A stretch of DNA of 64,000 nucleotides, from the NCBI GenBank assembly GCA_016870485.1, contig VGBM01000001.1:293068-357067 (forward strand), given 5' to 3'. The stretch is from Actinomycetota bacterium (GTDB taxonomy: Bacteria > Actinomycetota > Thermoleophilia > Gaiellales > F1-60-MAGs149). The notes beneath the pieces are model-generated. The model made no database searches. It saw only the letters and a list, made by a program, of their open reading frames with translations, and had not been told where the DNA came from. Made by a program: the position numbers and the translations under genes. Of the stretch, positions 1,845 through 10,560 are shown one piece after another (the first letter of the stretch is position 1; every line of letters starts with the position of its first letter).

Positions 1845-2828
1845 CTACAGCGCCTCGGCCAGCGCCCGTTCCAGCACGAGCGCCGGCGGCATCCGCGACA
1901 TGCCCTTGAGCGCCGCGTCGGCCTCGTGCATGCGACTGAGCGCGTGGCTGGCGTCGGCCGGCGACCAGACGCCGAGGGCGGCGAGCATCTTGCCGGCCCG
2001 AAACGGCGCCACGCCGAGCTCCTTGGCCAGCGCCTCCCGCGAGGGGCGCCCCTCCTCCCCCAGCTCGACCGTGCGCCGCACGAGCTCCACATGCCGCGTC
2101 AGCTGCGGCAGCACGCGATGCGGCTCCGCAGCGCCCGCCATCAGCCGCGTCAGCTCGCCGATCGCGCCGCGCCGGTCGCGTTCGGTGACGCAGTCGAGGA
2201 GCGCCCACGGCGCGTCGTCGTGGCGGGCGGCAACCATGGCCTCGACGAGGCCGAGCTCGACGGGGCCGTCGGGGCCATAGGTGGCGAGCTTCTCCAGCTC
2301 ACGCGTGATCTCGTCGGGGCGGTCGCCGAGCAGGTCCGTGAAGCGGGCCATCGCGTCCGGCGCGAACGCGAGGCCGAGGCGCTCCGCCTCCTGGCGAGCG
2401 AAGGCCGCGCTCTTCGGGGCGTCGAAGCGCAGGACCGCCTCCTTGCCGCCCGCCGTGCGCACGGCCTTCAGGAGCGGGTCGTCGTCGGGCCAGACGGGCT
2501 TGCGCGGATCGGCCGGCGCGTCGGCGACGAGGAGCAGCACGGTGCCCGGGCTCGGGTCCTGCACGTAGGCCACCAGCGGGTCGAGCCGCCCCGCGCGGCG
2601 GGGCTTGACCCAGGCGTCGATGCCCTCCACGACCACCAGCCGGTCGCGCGCGAAGAGGCCCTGCTGCGCGCACAGGAGCGCCACGTCCTGCGGGTCGGAT
2701 TCGGACGCGAGCAGCACGTCGACGGCGTCAGCGGGGAAGCGCCCGCGCAGCCGCTCGGCGGCGCGCCGCACCTTGCCGCGGTCCGTGCCCATCAGGAGGT
2801 AGGCGGGGCTGAGGGGCTGCGCGGCCAC
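1845..2828 (-). CDS. holA: DNA polymerase III delta subunit
   Basis: PAYLLMG start, GLFARDRLVVVEG, ELEKLATY. Canonical position downstream of comEC. Confidence 0.9.
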   Translation of the reverse strand: MAAQPLSPAYLLMGTDRGKVRRAAERLRGRFPADAVDVLLASESDPQDVALLCAQQGLFARDRLVVVEGIDAWVKPRRAGRLDPLVAYVQDPSPGTVLLLVADAPADPRKPVWPDDDPLLKAVRTAGGKEAVLRFDAPKSAAFARQEAERLGLAFAPDAMARFTDLLGDRPDEITRELEKLATYGPDGPVELGLVEAMVAARHDDAPWALLDCVTERDRRGAIGELTRLMAGAAEPHRVLPQLTRHVELVRRTVELGEEGRPSREALAKELGVAPFRAGKMLAALGVWSPADASHALSRMHEADAALKGMSRMPPALVLERALAEAL

Positions 2829-4218
2829 GGCCAGATCCTACCCGCCGGGCCGCGACGAGGCAGGCCGCGCCGGCAAGCGCCGGCACGGCCCACGCGGGCA
2901 CCGCGGCGCCGATCGCCGCGCCGCCGCGCGCGCACAGCACGATCCACGCGGCGGGCCACTGCGCGCACCAGGCAAGGCCGTCTGCAGCGGCCGGCGCGAC
3001 AGGGTCGACGGCGACCGCGGCGAGGGCGGTCCAGAGGACCAGCGGCACGGCCGGGGCCGCCGCGAGGTTGGCCGGTACGGACGCCGCGAGCGCGACCTGA
3101 CCGAAGTGCCACCAGCTGATCGGCGCCGTGGTCAGCGTCGCGGCGGCGGTCACCGCCGCGGCCGCCGCCACGACGTGTGGCAGGCGCGTCGCGGCCGCGA
3201 GGGCCCGCGTGTGCGGGGCGACCAGCAGGATGCCCGCCACCGCGGCGAACGACAGCTGCAGGCCGGGGTCGAACAGGCTGTGCGGGTTCCAGACGAGCAG
3301 AGCGGCCGCGCCGAGCCCGAGCACCCGCCACGCGGCCCGCGGCCGTCCAGCGAGCAGCGCGATGCAGCCGGCGCCGCCTGCGATCCCGGCCCGCACGACG
3401 CTCGGGTCGGGCCCGACCACCGCGACGTAGGCGAGGATCGCGGCGATCGCCGCCCCGAGCGCGTGGCGGCGGCTCCCCCCGAGCGCCCACGCCGCGAGCA
3501 CGACGAGGGCCACGAGCAGGGCCACGTTGCCGCCCGACACGGCCATCAGGTGCGCGAGGCCCGAGGCGCGCAGGTCGGCCACGGCGCCCGGCGAGAGCCC
3601 GGCGTCCGCCCCGAACGCGAGCCCCCGCACGACGGCGCCGGGATCGCCCTCGCCGGCGCCGGCGAGGGCGTCGAGGGCGTCGATCCGCAGGCGATCGGCG
3701 GCGCCCCACGCCCCGCCCCGCATCCCGACGACCTCGTAGCGGCGGATCCGGAGGACGGCGTGGACGCCCTGGCGGGCGAGCCAGGCCGCCTCGTCGAAGC
3801 CGTCCGCGGACGTCCGCGGCCGCTCCAGCCGCCCCGCGACGCGGAGCACGGCGCCGCGCGGAGGCGGCGCCCCCGACTCGAGGCGCAGGAGCACCGGGCC
3901 GCCGCCGGCGAGCTCCCCGACGGCGAGGCGCAGCCGGCCACCGCCGCGCCAGGCCTCGGCGACCGTGACCCGGCCGTCGACGACGGCCTCGCCGATCCGG
4001 ACGGCGAGGGGCTCGCGGGCGAGCGCCCCGAGCCGTGCGCCGCCCACGAGGCCGCCGAGCACGGCGAGGACCACGAGGGCGACCCCGCTGCGGCGGCGCG
4101 CGAGGACGGCCGCGCCCGCCCCGGCGAGCGCGATCGCGAGCGGCCCGGCGAGGAGGCTCGCGGCGGCCCCGGTCGCGAGCGCCGCCCCGACCAGGTCCGC
4201 CGTGACGGGGCGCCTCAC
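2728..4218 (-). CDS. comEC: ComEC/Rec2 competence membrane protein lacking the C-terminal metallo-beta-lactamase domain
   Basis: In-frame part of ORF 2728..4860 from GTG 4218, overlapping the comEA stop. Motifs GLAHLMAVSGGNV, PSVVRAG, NPHSLFDPGLQLSFAAV. Confidence 0.88.
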   Translation of the reverse strand: MRRPVTADLVGAALATGAAASLLAGPLAIALAGAGAAVLARRRSGVALVVLAVLGGLVGGARLGALAREPLAVRIGEAVVDGRVTVAEAWRGGGRLRLAVGELAGGGPVLLRLESGAPPPRGAVLRVAGRLERPRTSADGFDEAAWLARQGVHAVLRIRRYEVVGMRGGAWGAADRLRIDALDALAGAGEGDPGAVVRGLAFGADAGLSPGAVADLRASGLAHLMAVSGGNVALLVALVVLAAWALGGSRRHALGAAIAAILAYVAVVGPDPSVVRAGIAGGAGCIALLAGRPRAAWRVLGLGAAALLVWNPHSLFDPGLQLSFAAVAGILLVAPHTRALAAATRLPHVVAAAAAVTAAATLTTAPISWWHFGQVALAASVPANLAAAPAVPLVLWTALAAVAVDPVAPAAADGLAWCAQWPAAWIVLCARGGAAIGAAVPAWAVPALAGAACLVAARRVGSGRGRAAPQPRLPPDGHGPRQGAARRRAAARALPR

Positions 4219-4790
4219 GGGGCGACGAGGTCGCGCAGCTGGTCGAGCTTCGCCGGCCCGATCCCGGGCACCTCGACGAGCTGCTCGACGCTCGAGAAGC
4301 CGCCGTGCTCGTCGCGCCAGGCGATGATCCGCTCCGCCGTCGCCGGCCCGATCCCGGGCAGGGCGTCGAGGTCCTCGACGCTCGCGCCGTTCAGGTGCAC
4401 GAGGCCCGTGGTGCCGGTCGCGTAGCCCGCGCCGGCCTCGGGCACCGCGCCGATCGGGGCGAGCTCCGGCACGAGCACCTGCTCGCCGTCCGCGAGGAGC
4501 GAGGCGAGGTTCAGGGCCACGGCGTTGCCCTGGCGGGTGATCCCGCCGGCCCGCTCGATCGCGTCCACGACGCGGGAGCCGCGCGGCAGCGCGTACACCC
4601 CGGGCTCGCGGACCGCTCCCGTCACGTGCACGATGACGGGCTCCTCGGGCACCGGGGCGACCGCGCCGACCGTCTCGACCGACGCGGGCGGCTGCCCGTC
4701 CCCGCGCCCGCGCACGGCCGCGACGGCGGCCGCCAGGAGGAGGGCGACGGCCAGGCCGATCAGGAGCGTCCGGCGGCGGGGCGGGGACAT
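4215..4790 (-). CDS. comEA: ComEA DNA-binding competence protein (SLBB + helix-hairpin-helix)
   Basis: VHVTGAVREPGVY, LNLASLLADGEQVLVP, LDALPGIGPATAERII, EVPGIGPAKL. Confidence 0.93.
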   Translation of the reverse strand: MSPPRRRTLLIGLAVALLLAAAVAAVRGRGDGQPPASVETVGAVAPVPEEPVIVHVTGAVREPGVYALPRGSRVVDAIERAGGITRQGNAVALNLASLLADGEQVLVPELAPIGAVPEAGAGYATGTTGLVHLNGASVEDLDALPGIGPATAERIIAWRDEHGGFSSVEQLVEVPGIGPAKLDQLRDLVAP

Positions 4791-4872
4791 ACCCGGATCG
4801 TCGCCCGGCGCCGGGCACGGGACGGTGCCGCAGGCGCGCGGGTCGCGCGCGGCGGCGCACGCGGGGCGCGCG

Positions 4873-7371
4873 CTAGCGCACGACGATGTTGACGAGCTTG
4901 TCGGGGACCACGATCTCCTTCACGATCGTCTTGCCCTCCACGAGCTCCGCGATGCGCGGCAGCGCCTTGACGGCGGCCAGCACCTCGGACTCCGGCAGGT
5001 CGCAGGCGAGCTGCACCCGCTCGCGCAGCTTGCCGTTGACCTGCACGACGCACTCGAAGGCGTCGGCGACGAGCAGCGCCGGATCGGCCACGGGCCACGG
5101 CGCCTCCCACAGCCGCTCCCCGCCGAGCCGCCCCCAGAGCTCCTCGGCGATGTGCGGCGAGAAGGGCTGCACGAGCCCCACCAGGGTGCCCGCGGCGTGG
5201 CGCAGGGCCTGCGCGCCCACCGGATCCCCGATCAGCTCGTCACGGCCCCGCTCGATCCCGTTCAGGAGCTCCATCGTGGCCGCGATCGCCGTGTTGAACT
5301 GCAGGCGCCGGTCGATGTCCGCGGTCACGCGCTGGATGGTGCGGTGCGTCAGGCGCAGGAGCTCGAGCACGTCGCCCGCGGCGTCGGCGGGTGCGGCCGG
5401 CACGGGCGCGCCCGTGGTCTCCGCGGCGATCCGCCCGACCGCCTTCCAGAGCCGGTCGAGGAAGCGCGCCGGGCCGAGCACACCCGAGTCGGACCACTCC
5501 TTGTCCTGGTCGGGCGGACCCATGAAGAGCACGTACATGCGCAGCGCGTCGGCGCCGTAGCGGTCGACGATCGCGTCCGGGGCGACGACGTTGCCCTTGG
5601 ACTTGGACATCTTCGCGCCGTCCTTGTAGATCATCCCCTGCGTGAACAGGTTCGCGAACGGCTCGCGGAAGCCGACGTAGCCCGCGTCGTAGAGGACCTT
5701 CGTGAAGAAGCGGCTGTAGAGCAGGTGCAGGATCGCGTGCTCGACGCCGCCGATGTACTGGCCGACGGGCAGCCACCAGTCGACGTCGGCGCGCGTGAAG
5801 GCCTCCGCGTCGTCGTGCGCGTTGACGTAGCGCAGGTAGTACCAGGACGAATCGACGAAGGTGTCCATGGTGTCCGTCTCGCGCTGGGCGGGGCCGCCGC
5901 AGGACGGGCAGGCAACGGCGCGCCACTCCTCCGCGCTCGCGAGCGGCGAGCGCCCCTTGGGGGCGTAGTCGTCGATCTCGGGCAGCCGCACCGGCAGGTC
6001 GGCGTCGGGCACGGGCACCAGCCCGCAGGCGGGGCAGTCGACGATCGGGATCGGCGCGCCCCAGTAGCGCTGCCGTGAGACCAGCCAGTCGCGCAGCCGG
6101 TAGGCGGTCGTGCGCTCGCCGCGGCCGTCCTCGGCGAGCCAGGCCGGGATGGCCTCCTTCGCCGCGGCCACGGTCAGCCCGTCGAAGCGCCCCGAATTGA
6201 CGAGCACGGCGTCGTCGCCCGCGTCCGTGAAGGCCTCGGCCTGCACGTCGACCGCGCCCTCGACCGGGGCCACCACCTGGCGGATCTCGAGCCCGAAGGC
6301 GCGCGCGAAGGCGTGGTCGCGGTCGTCGTGGGCGGGCACCGCCATGATCGCGCCCGTGCCGTACTCGACGAGCACGTAGTCGGACACCCAGACCGGGATC
6401 TCCTCGTCGGTGACCGGGTTAAGGACGCGCCGGCCCGTATCGACGCCGGTCTTCGGGCGGTCCTCGCGCATCCGGTCCGCGACGGACTCGGCGCCGCGCC
6501 GGCGCACGTACTCCATGACCTCGTCCTCCGCGGGCGTGCCGCGCACCAGGTCGTGAACCAGCGGGTGCTCGGGGGCCAGCACGAAGAAGGTCGCGCCGAA
6601 GAGCGTGTCGGGGCGCGTCGTGAAGACGGGGATCGCCGCGTCGCCCCCGATCACGGGGAACCGCACCTCGGCCCCGTGCGAGCGGCCGATCCAGTTGCGC
6701 TGCATGGTCAGGACGCGCTCGGGCCACGACTCGAGCAGCTCCATGTCGTCGAGCAGCCGGTCCGCGTAGTCGGTGATCCGGAAGAACCACTGCTCAAGGT
6801 CGCGCGCCTCGACCTCGGTGCCGCAGCGCTCGCAGCGGCCGTCGACGACCTGCTCGTTGGCGAGCACCGTCTGGTCCTGCGGGCACCAGTTGACGGCGGC
6901 GCCCTTCTTGTAGGCGAGGCCACGCTCGAACATCCGCAGGAAGAGCCACTGCGTCCAGCGGTAGTACGCGGGGTCGGAGGTGGCGAGCTCGCGGCTCCAG
7001 TCGATCGACCAGCCCATCCGCAGCATCTGCTCGCGGATCCGCGCGATGTTGCGAGCCGTCACCTCGGCCGGCCTGCCGCCGGTCTTGATGGCGGCGTTCT
7101 CGGCGGGCAGCCCGAACGAGTCGTAGCCCATCGGGTGCAGCACCTGGAAGCCGGTGCGGCGGCGGAAGTGCGAGACGACGTCACCCATCGTGTAGTTGGT
7201 CACGTGCCCCATGTGCAGGTCGCCGGAGGGGTACGGCAGCATCTCCAGGACGTAGGCGCGGGGGCGCGCGTCCGCCGCCGAGTCGGCGGGGTTCGGGGTC
7301 TCAAAGGCCCGCTCGGCGGCCCAGAAGGCCTGCCAGCGGGCCTCGATCGCGTCGGGCTCGTAGCGTTCCAC
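4873..7371 (-). CDS. leuS: Leucine--tRNA ligase
   Basis: MLPYPSGDLHMGH (HIGH), KMSKSKGN (KMSKS), YIGGVEHAILHLLYSRF; 832 aa. Confidence 0.98.
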   Translation of the reverse strand: MERYEPDAIEARWQAFWAAERAFETPNPADSAADARPRAYVLEMLPYPSGDLHMGHVTNYTMGDVVSHFRRRTGFQVLHPMGYDSFGLPAENAAIKTGGRPAEVTARNIARIREQMLRMGWSIDWSRELATSDPAYYRWTQWLFLRMFERGLAYKKGAAVNWCPQDQTVLANEQVVDGRCERCGTEVEARDLEQWFFRITDYADRLLDDMELLESWPERVLTMQRNWIGRSHGAEVRFPVIGGDAAIPVFTTRPDTLFGATFFVLAPEHPLVHDLVRGTPAEDEVMEYVRRRGAESVADRMREDRPKTGVDTGRRVLNPVTDEEIPVWVSDYVLVEYGTGAIMAVPAHDDRDHAFARAFGLEIRQVVAPVEGAVDVQAEAFTDAGDDAVLVNSGRFDGLTVAAAKEAIPAWLAEDGRGERTTAYRLRDWLVSRQRYWGAPIPIVDCPACGLVPVPDADLPVRLPEIDDYAPKGRSPLASAEEWRAVACPSCGGPAQRETDTMDTFVDSSWYYLRYVNAHDDAEAFTRADVDWWLPVGQYIGGVEHAILHLLYSRFFTKVLYDAGYVGFREPFANLFTQGMIYKDGAKMSKSKGNVVAPDAIVDRYGADALRMYVLFMGPPDQDKEWSDSGVLGPARFLDRLWKAVGRIAAETTGAPVPAAPADAAGDVLELLRLTHRTIQRVTADIDRRLQFNTAIAATMELLNGIERGRDELIGDPVGAQALRHAAGTLVGLVQPFSPHIAEELWGRLGGERLWEAPWPVADPALLVADAFECVVQVNGKLRERVQLACDLPESEVLAAVKALPRIAELVEGKTIVKEIVVPDKLVNIVVR

Positions 7372-7537
7372 GGCAGGCAGGATACGGACTCACCCCGGGG
7401 GCGGAGCCGCCCGCCGCGTTGACCCACCCCTCACCCTCATGACGGAAACTTGTTAGAGCAGTCGCCCGAAAAGTTGCGATTCTTTCGTCAGATCGCCGGA
7501 ATCACTCCGGCAGGGACAGAGCAGGGGGAACACCACG

Positions 7538-8254
7538 ATGGAACTGACCTCGTCGCAGGAGCTGATCCTGTGGCTCGGCACCGCAGGCATGGCCGCCGGC
7601 GCCGCGATCATCGCCGCAATCGGCTTCAGCCTGCCGAACCACCAGCGGCACCACGTCACCGCGAGCTTCTTCGTCTGCGCAATCGCCGCCTGCGCCTACC
7701 TCGCGATGGCCACCGGCTCGGGCGTATGGATGGTCGACGACCAGCCCGTCTACTACGCCCGCTACCTCGACTGGCTCGTGACCACGCCGCTGCTCCTGCT
7801 CGGCCTGCTCACGGTCGGGTTCGCCCCGCTCACGGGCGGTGGGGAGGCCGGACGCACCCGCAACGGCCTGATCGGCTGGGTGCTCGGCGCGGACGTCCTG
7901 ATGATCGCCACCGGCCTCGTCGCGTCGCTGCGCGGCGACAGCAGCGATCGCTGGATCTGGTACGCCATCAGCCTCGTCTTCTTCCTGCTCGTGCTGTGGG
8001 GCCTGTTCGGCCCGGTCAAGCAGCACCTGGACGCGAAGATGACGCCGCTCTACACGAAGCTCCTGGGGATCCTGACGATCCTCTGGGTCATCTACCCGAT
8101 TCTCTGGGTCCTCGGCACCGAGGGCACCGGCGCGATCGGCCTGACCGGGGAGATCCTGGTCTTCGCGGTGATCGACGTGCTGAGCAAGGTCGGCTTCGGC
8201 ATCCTGCTGGTCCTCGGCATCAAGAGCATGTCGCGCTCGCACGCCGCGGCCTGA
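7538..8254 (+). CDS. Microbial (type-1) rhodopsin, DTG motif, probable outward proton pump
   Basis: Seven hydrophobic helices. Helix C RYLDWLVTTPLLLLGL (BR R82/D85/T89/G at 96), GADVLMI (D115/M118), LWVIYPILW, helix G IDVLSKVGFG (D212/K216). Confidence 0.95.
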   Translation: MELTSSQELILWLGTAGMAAGAAIIAAIGFSLPNHQRHHVTASFFVCAIAACAYLAMATGSGVWMVDDQPVYYARYLDWLVTTPLLLLGLLTVGFAPLTGGGEAGRTRNGLIGWVLGADVLMIATGLVASLRGDSSDRWIWYAISLVFFLLVLWGLFGPVKQHLDAKMTPLYTKLLGILTILWVIYPILWVLGTEGTGAIGLTGEILVFAVIDVLSKVGFGILLVLGIKSMSRSHAAA

Positions 8255-8265
8255 CGCTCCTCGGA

Positions 8266-8298
8266 CCCCCGCGCGGCGCCCCCGGGCCCGCGCGGGGG
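8266..8298. terminator. GC-rich hairpin between the convergent rhodopsin and enolase-like genes
   Basis: 11-bp inverted repeat CCCCCGCGCGG / CCGCGCGGGGG. No U-tract. Confidence 0.5.
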
Positions 8299-8299
8299 C

Positions 8300-9568
8300 C
8301 TAGGCGTCCCCCCACGGCTCAAGCCGCCCGCCGTCCGCCCGGACGGCGCTCTCGCGCAGGAGCCGGTTGTACTTCGCGAGGCGCTCCGACCGGGTCAGCG
8401 AACCGACCTTGAGCTGCGCCGGGCCCGCGGCGATCGCGAGGTCGGCCAGCCAGTCGTCCTCGGTCTCCCCCGAGCGCGCCGACACGACCGCGCGCCAGCC
8501 CGCCGCGCGGGCGCGGGCCGCCACGGCCAGCGCCTCCGTCAGCGTGCCGACCTGGTTCGCCTTCACGAGCACCGCGTTGGCGGACGCGTCGCCGATCGCC
8601 CGCTCGAGGCGGTCGAGCTGCGTGCAGAGCAGGTCGTCGCCGATCACCTGCACGCAGTCGCCGACCGCGGCCGTGAAGGCGGGCCAGGCCGGCCAGTCGT
8701 CCTCCCCGAACGGGTCCTCGACGGACACCACCGGGTAGCGGCGCGTCCAGTCGGCGACCCGCTCGCCCCATGCCGCCGCGTCGAGGACCGCGTCGTCGGC
8801 GGCCAGCCGGTAGCCCGCGGCCGTCGCGAAGTGGCTCGCCGCCACGTCGAGGCCGATCGCCACGTCGCGGCCCGGCTCGAGGCCGGCGCGCTCGATCGCC
8901 CGGGTCACGATGATCAGGCCATCCTCGTTCGCGCCGAAGGCCGCGAAGCCGCCCTCGTCGGCGCGCAGGAGCGTCCGGCCAAGCTCGCCGAGCTCGACGG
9001 CGAGCGCGGCGAGGACGCGCGAGACGTCCTCGATCGCCTGCGGGAACGTCTCCGCGCGCAGCGGGATCGCCAGGTAGTCCTGCAGGTCGACGGCGCGCCC
9101 CGCGTGCAGCCCGCCCGAAAGCGCGTTCACCATCGGCCGCGGCAGGGCCGCGTGCTCCGCCCCGCCGAGGTGCCGCCAGAGCGGCAGGCCCAGGCTCGCC
9201 GCACCGGCCCGCGCGCACGCCACGGACGCGGCGAGCAGCGCGTTGCCGCCGAGCCGCGAGCGCTCCGGCGTGCCGTCCAGGGCCACCAGCGCGGCGTCGA
9301 TCGCGGCCTGGTCGGCGGCGTCCATGCCGCGCAGCCGCTCCGCGATCTCCCCGGTGACGTGGGCCGCGGCACGCAGGACGCCGCGCCCGCCGTAGCGGTC
9401 GGGGTCGCCGTCGCGCAGCTCGAGCGCCTCGTGGCGCCCCGTGGACGCGCCGGACGGGACGCTGGCACGGGCCAGGGTGCCGTCCTCGAGCACGACCTCG
9501 GCCTCGACGGTCGGCCGGCCGCGCGAGTCGAGGATCTCGAAGGCGCGCACCGCGTCGATCCGGCTCAC
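8300..9568 (-). CDS. Enolase-family protein (divergent phosphopyruvate hydratase paralog)
   Basis: EILDSRGRPTVEAEV, VPSGASTG, DEGGF, GDDL, LVKANQVG, RSERLAKYNRLL. QE is replaced by QD and SHRSGE by SARSGE. Confidence 0.9.
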   Translation of the reverse strand: MSRIDAVRAFEILDSRGRPTVEAEVVLEDGTLARASVPSGASTGRHEALELRDGDPDRYGGRGVLRAAAHVTGEIAERLRGMDAADQAAIDAALVALDGTPERSRLGGNALLAASVACARAGAASLGLPLWRHLGGAEHAALPRPMVNALSGGLHAGRAVDLQDYLAIPLRAETFPQAIEDVSRVLAALAVELGELGRTLLRADEGGFAAFGANEDGLIIVTRAIERAGLEPGRDVAIGLDVAASHFATAAGYRLAADDAVLDAAAWGERVADWTRRYPVVSVEDPFGEDDWPAWPAFTAAVGDCVQVIGDDLLCTQLDRLERAIGDASANAVLVKANQVGTLTEALAVAARARAAGWRAVVSARSGETEDDWLADLAIAAGPAQLKVGSLTRSERLAKYNRLLRESAVRADGGRLEPWGDA

Positions 9569-10560
9569 GCCCCCACCTCCACGCGCTCGAGCGCGCGCAT
9601 CACGGTCGCGGGCGGGTCGAGCACCAGCGAGCGGCCGAGGGCGCGGGCGCGGTCGCGGGAGCGCGCGTCGAGGTACTCGGCCGGCGACTTGCCATCGACC
9701 CGGGCCACCATCAGGACCCCGAGCTCCGCCACGACCGCCGGCTCGTCGGCGAGCCCGGGCGCCGCCTCGGCGTGGGCGCCGTGGAGCGCCCGCGCCAGCG
9801 CGACCAGGAGCGCGCGCTGGCGCGGCAGGTGCAGGGCCTTGAGGCAGAGGTGGTTGAGACAGAAGGCGACATCGAAGGCCGGATCGCCCCAGTGCGCCAC
9901 CTCGACGTCGATGACGAGCATGCGGTCCGGGTAGGCCAGCAGGTTCTTCGGGGCGTAGTCGCCGAGGACGAGCGCGCGGCGGGTGCCTAGGAGCCGCTCG
10001 ACCTCCGCCGCGATCGCGGGGGCGAGATCGGGGTGGCGGGCGGCGGTGAAGCGGTGGTACGGGTCGATCCGGCCCTCGACCAGCGTGGTCAGGTCGTCGA
10101 ACGCCGCCGACACCGCCGGATCGGCCGCCGAGGCCGCGTGGACCCGGCCGAGCAGGTCACCCGCGCGATAGGCGTCGCGCATGTCGATCTCGCCGGCTAG
10201 GAGCCGCTCCTTCCACGGAGCGCCGCCCGCGGGCGCGCACTCCATCGCGAACACGTGCCGGTCCTCGTCGGCGAAGACCACCGCTGGCGCGTGGCCCGGG
10301 CCGAGCAGGCGGCCGATCGTCGCGAGCGCGCGCTGCTCCACGGAGCTGCGCCCCACGTCGTACGCCCACACCTCCTCCACGCGCAGGAAGGGCAGCGCCT
10401 GCTTGACGACGATCCCGTCGCCGCCGCCCGGCCAGCGCACGCGCCAGACGTCGTTGGAGATGCCGCCGCCGAGCGCGTCGATCTCGAGCGCGACCCCGGC
10501 AGGGACGGCGCCATGCGCCGCCAGGTACGCGGGCAGATCGGCGGCGGTGAGCGCCTCCAC
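9565..10560 (-). CDS. APH/choline-kinase-fold phosphotransferase, methylthioribose kinase (MtnK)-like
   Basis: C-terminal part of ORF 9565..11463 from GTG 10560: GGGISNDVWRV, VVKQALPFLRV, LGDYAPKN, IDVEVAHWGDPAFD. Stop overlaps the enolase start by 4 nt. Confidence 0.85.
   Translation of the reverse strand: MEALTAADLPAYLAAHGAVPAGVALEIDALGGGISNDVWRVRWPGGGDGIVVKQALPFLRVEEVWAYDVGRSSVEQRALATIGRLLGPGHAPAVVFADEDRHVFAMECAPAGGAPWKERLLAGEIDMRDAYRAGDLLGRVHAASAADPAVSAAFDDLTTLVEGRIDPYHRFTAARHPDLAPAIAAEVERLLGTRRALVLGDYAPKNLLAYPDRMLVIDVEVAHWGDPAFDVAFCLNHLCLKALHLPRQRALLVALARALHGAHAEAAPGLADEPAVVAELGVLMVARVDGKSPAEYLDARSRDRARALGRSLVLDPPATVMRALERVEVGA

Follow-up and report, generated by a model that had tools for sequence, protein, structure and literature searches.

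Light-driven pumps that carry the helix-C motif DTG or DTS and have no internal proton donor are a test case for reprotonation of the Schiff base without an internal carboxylate, and the role of the helix-B histidines in these proteins is disputed. The characterised pumps of this kind, PspR (PDB 7W74) and SpaR, are proteobacterial. The locus described here raises the question of whether an actinobacterial DTG rhodopsin, in which one of these histidines is a Ser, works in the same way. The most probable answer (roughly 0.7) is that the protein binds retinal and uses light to pump H+ outward, with a BR-like extracellular release pair, and that its Schiff base would regain a proton straight from the cytoplasm, by way of a hydrated cavity opened by a Gly and lined by His39, His38 and Ser43. 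The following features are located in the window, which is the whole analysed stretch of 64,000 nucleotides.

7524..7529, plus strand: Shine-Dalgarno-like GGGGGA, 8 nt 5' of the ATG (read from the sequence)
7538..8254, plus strand: rhodopsin coding sequence with DTG motif and seven transmembrane helices (PF01036 E = 3e-54; AlphaFold2 pLDDT 92.3; dN/dS 0.17-0.45)
7649..7654, plus strand: codons of His38-His39 (BR 41/42; SpaR H32/H33), where helix B begins on the cytoplasmic side (alignments, codons)
7664..7666, plus strand: codon of Ser43 (BR T46; gate His37 of SpaR/PspR) (alignments, codons)
7769..7804, plus strand: helix-C motif region with Asp78 (proton acceptor), Thr82 and Gly89 (D96 position) (alignments, codons)
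7844..7861, plus strand: Glu103, Arg106 and Arg108 in the cytoplasmic N-terminal extension of helix D (alignment, AlphaFold2 model)
8120..8152, plus strand: Glu195 (BR E194) and Glu205 (BR E204), a BR-type extracellular proton-release pair (alignment, codons)
8174..8188, plus strand: Asp213 (BR D212), Ser216 (BR A215) and Lys217 (BR K216, the retinal Schiff-base lysine) (alignment, codons)
8259..8304, no strand assigned: GC-rich hairpin where the convergent rhodopsin and enolase-like genes meet (dG = -39.7 kcal/mol, z = -3.0 against shuffles)

The rhodopsin gene begins with ATG, ends with TGA and encodes a product of 238 aa. Residues 7-228 match the Pfam family Bac_rhodopsin (PF01036) with E = 3.1e-54 and a score of 184.3 bits, against a gathering cut-off of 24.6, which places the protein among the type-1 microbial rhodopsins. 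The N-termini of relatives (MELTS.../MDLTS...) are consistent with the chosen start. An AlphaFold2 model, built from a family alignment of 58 sequences, has seven helices and a mean pLDDT of 92.3, and Foldseek superposes it on BR, RxR and 8XX8 with TM values of 0.83-0.89. Pairwise dN/dS against 11 relatives is 0.17-0.45, stop codons are absent, and the GC3 of 0.96 resembles that of the host genome (75% GC). Because of this model, the constraint on an uninterrupted frame and the matching composition, the open reading frame is a real, native gene under selection and not a chance ORF.

A scan for consensus promoters and terminators reported nothing at the locus. The hairpin at 8259-8304 was missed by it because a T-run is absent; it was spotted by eye and then folded. 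It overlaps the stop codon of the enolase-like gene (8300-8302) and is likely a terminator common to the two genes.

Equivalences to BR were taken from an L-INS-i alignment to BR and a HMMER alignment to cruxrhodopsin-3, with the codons checked, and ungapped counting from Tyr54 (BR Y57) agrees with both. In helix B, His38 and His39 correspond to BR 41/42 and Ser43 to T46; in helix C, Arg75 corresponds to R82, Asp78 to D85, Thr82 to T89 and Gly89 to D96, which gives the motif DTG. Farther along, Glu195 (in GTEG) and Glu205 (in TGEIL) are the equivalents of E194 and E204, and Asp213, Lys217 and Phe220 are those of D212, K216 and F219. The preliminary description of this locus had named the DTG motif, the Ser at T46, the His-His pair at BR 41/42 and the equivalents of D212, K216, E194 and E204; the two alignments and the Tyr54 spacing confirm the motif, the Ser and the pair, and alignment and codons confirm the other four. 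A His at the T46 position was also sought by alignment to the proteobacterial DTG/DTS pumps, and the profile-profile alignment of hhalign retained the Ser. One alternative placement of the pair, at BR 42/43, was produced by MAFFT --auto, which set it one column later; this is regarded as an alignment artefact, superseded by L-INS-i and hhalign. The pair is assigned to BR 41/42 because the ungapped spacing to Tyr54, L-INS-i and the profile-profile alignment concur.

The product has a seven-helix, BR-like fold with the Schiff-base Lys217 in helix G. Its retinal pocket is conserved, the 24 pocket residues being MVAYDWTTLMIGYSLFWYPWFDSK, against MVAYDWTTLMIGWSTMWYPWFDAK in BR. Asp78, together with Arg75, Thr82 and Asp213, forms the acceptor arrangement of the BR-type (DTD/DTE) outward H+ pumps, and the Glu195/Glu205 pair is present. 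The carboxylic donor that those pumps carry at D96 is absent, and Gly89 takes its place.

Compared with BR, the connection between helices C and D has about 11 additional residues; in the model it extends helix D, which spans 102-131, at its N-terminus. This extension carries an R-x-R, with Arg106 invariant and Arg108 in 70/71 loci, and position 103 is mostly acidic. A lengthened C-D loop is present in SpaR-like and TTG rhodopsins too. At four sites the query alone departs from family positions that are otherwise at least 85% conserved: L95F, C146L, F184V and A216S (window 7820-7822, 7973-7975, 8087-8089 and 8183-8185). C146L is located at BR T142, the beta-ionone end of the pocket, F184V adjoins BR W182, and A216S (BR A215; Ala in nearly all relatives) adjoins the Schiff-base Lys. 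Even relatives of 92-93% identity retain L, C, F and A at these sites. The four departures could be spectral tuning or consensus noise of the metagenome-assembled genome (MAG).

Relatives were sought in about 185,000 genomes, each the representative of one prokaryotic species, and 184 were confirmed among the candidate stretches. The best 80 of the 184 are all from uncultured Actinomycetota MAGs, mostly of lakes and rivers; within these 80, the Thermoleophilia/Gaiellales relatives are 65-93% identical to the query, and those from Solirubrobacterales and 'Mycobacterium sp.' 46-59%. These labels fit the Thermoleophilia host that had been proposed from the sequence. Conservation was counted in the 71 species-level loci with a readable ORF. 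DTG is present in all 71, as are Arg106, Glu195, Glu205, Asp213, Lys217 and Phe220; the His-His pair is found in 70, the remaining locus having a masked base, and the T46 position is Ser in 68, Gly in two and Cys in one. The best 120 database matches (50-92% identity) all show the same set: HH, S (rarely G or C), DTG (one DTA), then E, E, D, K and F. When 1.8 billion 50%-identity cluster representatives were searched, this signature appeared in only two full-length clusters and in fragments. Thus the clade is compact, and the residue set is a near-invariant trait of the clade rather than a peculiarity of the query.

A tree of 140 sequences (IQ-TREE quick search, LG+C20) places these proteins in a monophyletic family of 30 rows, all HHS/EE/F, with an SH-aLRT of 99. 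SpaR, PspR and Pantoea sequences form a clade of their own (SH-aLRT 97), apart from the query's. Both belong to a DT[GS]-rich assemblage of 72 rows (SH-aLRT 93), which includes the MpR-like sequences and the TTG anion pumps, and BR, RxR and the other DTD pumps occupy the other half of the tree. Inside the assemblage, 59/72 rows have a His at BR 42 and BR 46 varies among S, H and A; outside it, 9/68 rows have the BR 42 His. Thus it is the His at BR 42, not BR 46, that most consistently accompanies the loss of the D96 carboxylate.

A neighbouring subclade contains P0135 (L089-L091), a DTS rhodopsin with HH and an Ala at BR 46. Its gene is flanked by genes for inositol-1-phosphate synthase, a CarS-like protein (CDP-archaeol synthase family) and a CDP-alcohol phosphatidyltransferase, which suggests that its host is archaeal or has unusual lipids, rather than belonging to Saccharibacteria.

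A group with these properties has already been named. He et al. (bioRxiv 10.1101/2022.08.01.502354) reported DTG opsins in a 'Myco tribe' MAG from Lake Mendota and in many Mycobacteriales and Solirubrobacterales MAGs, and called the actinobacterial DTG clade 'MycoR'. In their analysis MycoR clusters with the DTS rhodopsins of Saccharibacteria (SacR), near the xenorhodopsins. Four clear-water lakes, of average pH 7.6, account for 121 of their 130 DTG sequences, and they noted that the clade favours clear-water lakes of about pH 7.6-8. Their work covers motif, phylogeny and habitat, without experiment, and laboratory work on the MycoR-type clade was not found in the literature searched. The members of the query's clade, all DTG, come from MAGs labelled 'Mycobacterium sp.' (Lake Mendota bins among them), Solirubrobacterales and Thermoleophilia/Gaiellales. 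This clade has the motif of MycoR and the same freshwater Actinomycetota hosts, Lake Mendota included, with no known difference from it; by motif, taxa and lake of origin, rather than by the reference sequences of He et al., the clade matches MycoR. The gene is accordingly a new member of a clade named from metagenomes, and the likely function of the group has already been proposed. The His-His pair, the Ser at T46 and the E194/E204 pair are unmentioned in the description of MycoR by He et al. What is added here, as read from the sequences, is that the clade shares its HH hallmark with the DTG/DTS pumps of Proteobacteria and combines it with Ser in the gate position and a release pair of the BR type. 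The distinct subtype announced in the preliminary description therefore stands as a clade of its own, apart from SpaR and PspR, and falls as a novelty, since MycoR had been named before.

The closest comparison is with the SpaR-like pumps. Plasmid-borne homologues from Pantoea and Sphingomonas led to the sequences of PspR and PDB 8ANQ; the latter, a DTS protein, is taken as SpaR on its sequence and motif. The start of helix B reads HHTL[LM]H in SpaR and Pantoea, GHTLIH in PspR, which carries only the second His of the pair, and HHVTAS in the query, which carries both. An hhalign comparison of the query's family with the SpaR-like proteins (probability 100%, 32% identity) sets His38/His39 on H32/H33 and Ser43 on H37. 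H32/H33 are described as a highly conserved cytoplasmic-side hallmark of the SpaR-like 'mirror proteorhodopsins' (PMC10154332); H37 is named as the gate in the 'mirror proteorhodopsin' paper, and a His at BR T46 is conserved through the whole SpaR-like group. The two groups are alike in the missing D96 carboxylate (Gly or Ser), the HH pair, the lengthened C-D connection and the BR-like fold. They differ in that the query has Ser43 for the gate His37, Phe220 for the Tyr at BR F219 (PspR Y213; 95% conserved), Glu205 for the Ser/Thr at BR E204 (SpaR S199) and Cys for the Pro at BR P50, and in their separate clades. The hosts differ as well, being actinobacterial for the query and proteobacterial for the SpaR-like proteins, which are stated to occur only in Gram-negative bacteria.

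This alignment corrects two points of the earlier reading. The His-His pair had been taken as a shifted substitute, one turn away from the position used by proteobacterial pumps; it is the counterpart of SpaR H32/H33, and only the third His, at BR 46, has been lost. It had also been held that the characterised pumps use the His at T46 as a substitute donor, which is stronger than the literature allows: PspR H37N has a wild-type photocycle, and SpaR still pumps as H37A (partly, not completely blocked) and as H37N, H37K or H37R, and loses little activity as H32A/H33A. Because of these mutants, a Ser at BR T46 is compatible with pumping.

Other characterised rhodopsins are less similar to the query in the relevant residues. 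BR and RxR (Rubrobacter xylanophilus, DTD) share the fold (TM 0.83-0.85), the retinal pocket, R82/D85/T89/D212/K216, E194/E204 and F219; in contrast to both, the query has Gly for D96, Ser for T46, His for F42 and a longer C-D connection, and lies in the other half of the tree. RxR was considered as a characterised actinobacterial relative and rejected on its DTD motif and its place in the BR half. The TTG 'glycyl-halorhodopsin' SsGHR (PDB 8XX8) is the best PDB sequence match (E = 9e-37) and has the highest query-normalised TM-score, 0.89. It shares with the query the Gly at D96, which opens a cytoplasmic cavity, and a similarly long C-D connection. However, SsGHR is an inward anion pump with Thr at D85, where the query has Asp78, with SQ...Q for HH and with Tyr at F219. 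For the DTG rhodopsin of Rubrobacter aplysinae (lambda-max 541 nm, PMC7979833), the 24 pocket residues, the sole part compared, do not match the query's family specifically.

The genome supplies the chromophore from elsewhere. The neighbours of the rhodopsin in the window are housekeeping genes: holA, comEA and leuS, then, beyond the rhodopsin, an enolase-like gene with an APH-family kinase gene, an ABC transporter, rsfS and nadD. Within the window no crt or blh gene and no transducer adjoins the rhodopsin, as had been noted earlier. A search of the genome (2.13 Mb, 93.7% complete, a single rhodopsin) for retinal genes found them on other contigs. On one, crtY is directly followed by blh (PF15461, 1e-55; contig C2:167175-169400, minus strand; L003 9131-11427); on another (contig C31; L005 about 1950-5830), a gene of the FMN-dependent dehydrogenase family, possibly a type-2 idi, precedes crtI and crtB. 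Thus the host genome encodes a retinal pathway, crtY-blh and crtI-crtB, away from the rhodopsin locus. In nine more distant loci of the family (L065, L068, L075, L077, L078, L079, L050, L064 and L071), crtY/blh, in some with crtB, adjoin the rhodopsin. In Solirubrobacterales-type members crtY and blh, often together with crtB, come directly after the rhodopsin and form with it a compact cassette that is missing from the query's subclade.

The gene order around the query is itself conserved. A divergent leuS, the rhodopsin and a convergent enolase-like gene (window 4873-9568) are kept in about 15 species-level MAGs of the 65-93% identity subclade (L006-L020, L026), and across these loci LeuS is 82-94% identical against 65-93% for the rhodopsin. 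From this arrangement and these identities it follows that the rhodopsin is vertically inherited at the leuS locus and evolves faster than its neighbour. Downstream of it, at window 8300-10560, Pfam assigns the two genes as an enolase-family gene and an APH/MtnK-like kinase gene.

The pump function of the clade is read entirely from homology; in favour of the outward H+ pump, D96 is the sole pump residue that is missing, and the others are invariant in the 71 loci. The fold, the retinal supply, the homology to the donor-less pumps, the SpaR and PspR mutants, the dN/dS and the lack of a recurrent transducer count in its favour as well. By analogy with PspR and SpaR, Asp78 would take the proton of the Schiff base, which would then be reprotonated directly from the cytoplasm with no internal donor. 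The route would be a water-filled cavity opened by the missing side chain at Gly89, and His39 (PspR/SpaR His33; BR Phe42), His38 and the hydroxyl of Ser43 would line and hydrate it; the orientation of the two His side chains is predicted from helix periodicity and the description of the PspR structure. M decay would be expected to slow with rising pH. In PspR, H+ is taken up directly from the solvent, a water molecule next to Gly84 has His33, His37 and Tyr213 as its ligands, and the substitution G84E speeds up the photocycle. Two of these three water ligands are changed in the query, His37 to Ser and Tyr213 to Phe220, and since they are replaced, its cytoplasmic half may be less hydrated than that of PspR. 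Of the PspR water ligands only His39 (His33) is kept, although a hydrogen bond to or from Ser43 would still be possible. The pK of His37 has been given as the reason why SpaR is active only in acid. Since this gate His is a Ser in the clade, its members may go on pumping in the clear-water lakes they inhabit, where the pH is neutral to slightly alkaline.

A bolder version of this scheme starts from the Ser-for-His swap at the gate, together with the retained His-His pair and the BR-type release pair, and would make the clade a functionally distinct donor-less pump, active at neutral-alkaline lake pH, in contrast to the SpaR-type pumps, which are confined to acid. His39 would then pass or give a proton to the Schiff base as a true histidine relay or donor, and metal or pH might modulate it. 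This version is unlikely.

It is quite improbable that the protein is instead an acid-only pump of the 'mirror proteorhodopsin' type like SpaR, inhibited by millimolar Zn2+ and active only below about pH 6.5, with the His-His pair as a Zn2+ site. The pair does correspond to SpaR H32/H33, proposed with E92 as one Zn2+ site, and the donor-less motif and lengthened C-D connection are common to both proteins. However, the proposed pH gate, His37, is Ser in the query, the second proposed Zn site (H33-H37) is lost with it, and a clear equivalent of E92 does not align. E204 and F219, which are Ser/Thr and Tyr in SpaR-like proteins, are both retained in the query, and its clade is separate in the tree. 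Moreover, an acid-only pump would be idle in the lakes from which He et al. drew most DTG sequences.

The missing D96 donor is also typical of sensory rhodopsins, ASR among them, and a slow photocycle is predicted at neutral-alkaline pH. The single-copy gene in its housekeeping neighbourhood could further suggest a photosensor, or some other signalling rhodopsin with a slow cycle, and not a pump for energy transduction. This reading is very unlikely. Clustering of all neighbouring ORFs revealed no recurrent signalling partner beside family members, whether transducer, HAMP/MCP or other signalling gene. The E194/E204 pair and D212 are invariant, whereas xenorhodopsins and Anabaena sensory rhodopsin have Pro at the position of Asp213 (xenorhodopsin-like rows read 'PKF'). 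The closest characterised relatives that share the motif are pumps, and the small genome (2.1 Mb) would fit photoheterotrophic energy supplementation.

Scarcely credible is the transport of another cation (Na+/Li+, as reported for MpR of Methylobacterium populi, from a separate DTG/DTS clade) or a retinal-independent membrane role (a preprint proposes scramblase activity for opsins), since MpR-like proteins have E32/E33/D35 at the start of helix B where the query's family has HH, the Methylobacterium sequence falls in a different subclade, and the genome makes retinal for a fully conserved retinal pocket.

Under the preferred reading, a donor-less outward H+ pump, the find is a modest one and overturns nothing. 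The clade, widespread in freshwater Actinomycetota (184 relatives in the scan), is a natural 'mutant' of the characterised pumps, in which the His-His pair is kept, the gate His and the cavity Tyr are lost, and the BR release pair is regained. Characterisation of one member would show whether the His at BR 42, rather than that at BR 46, compensates for the loss of D96. It would also show whether light is an energy source at alkaline pH for these lake bacteria, which are abundant.
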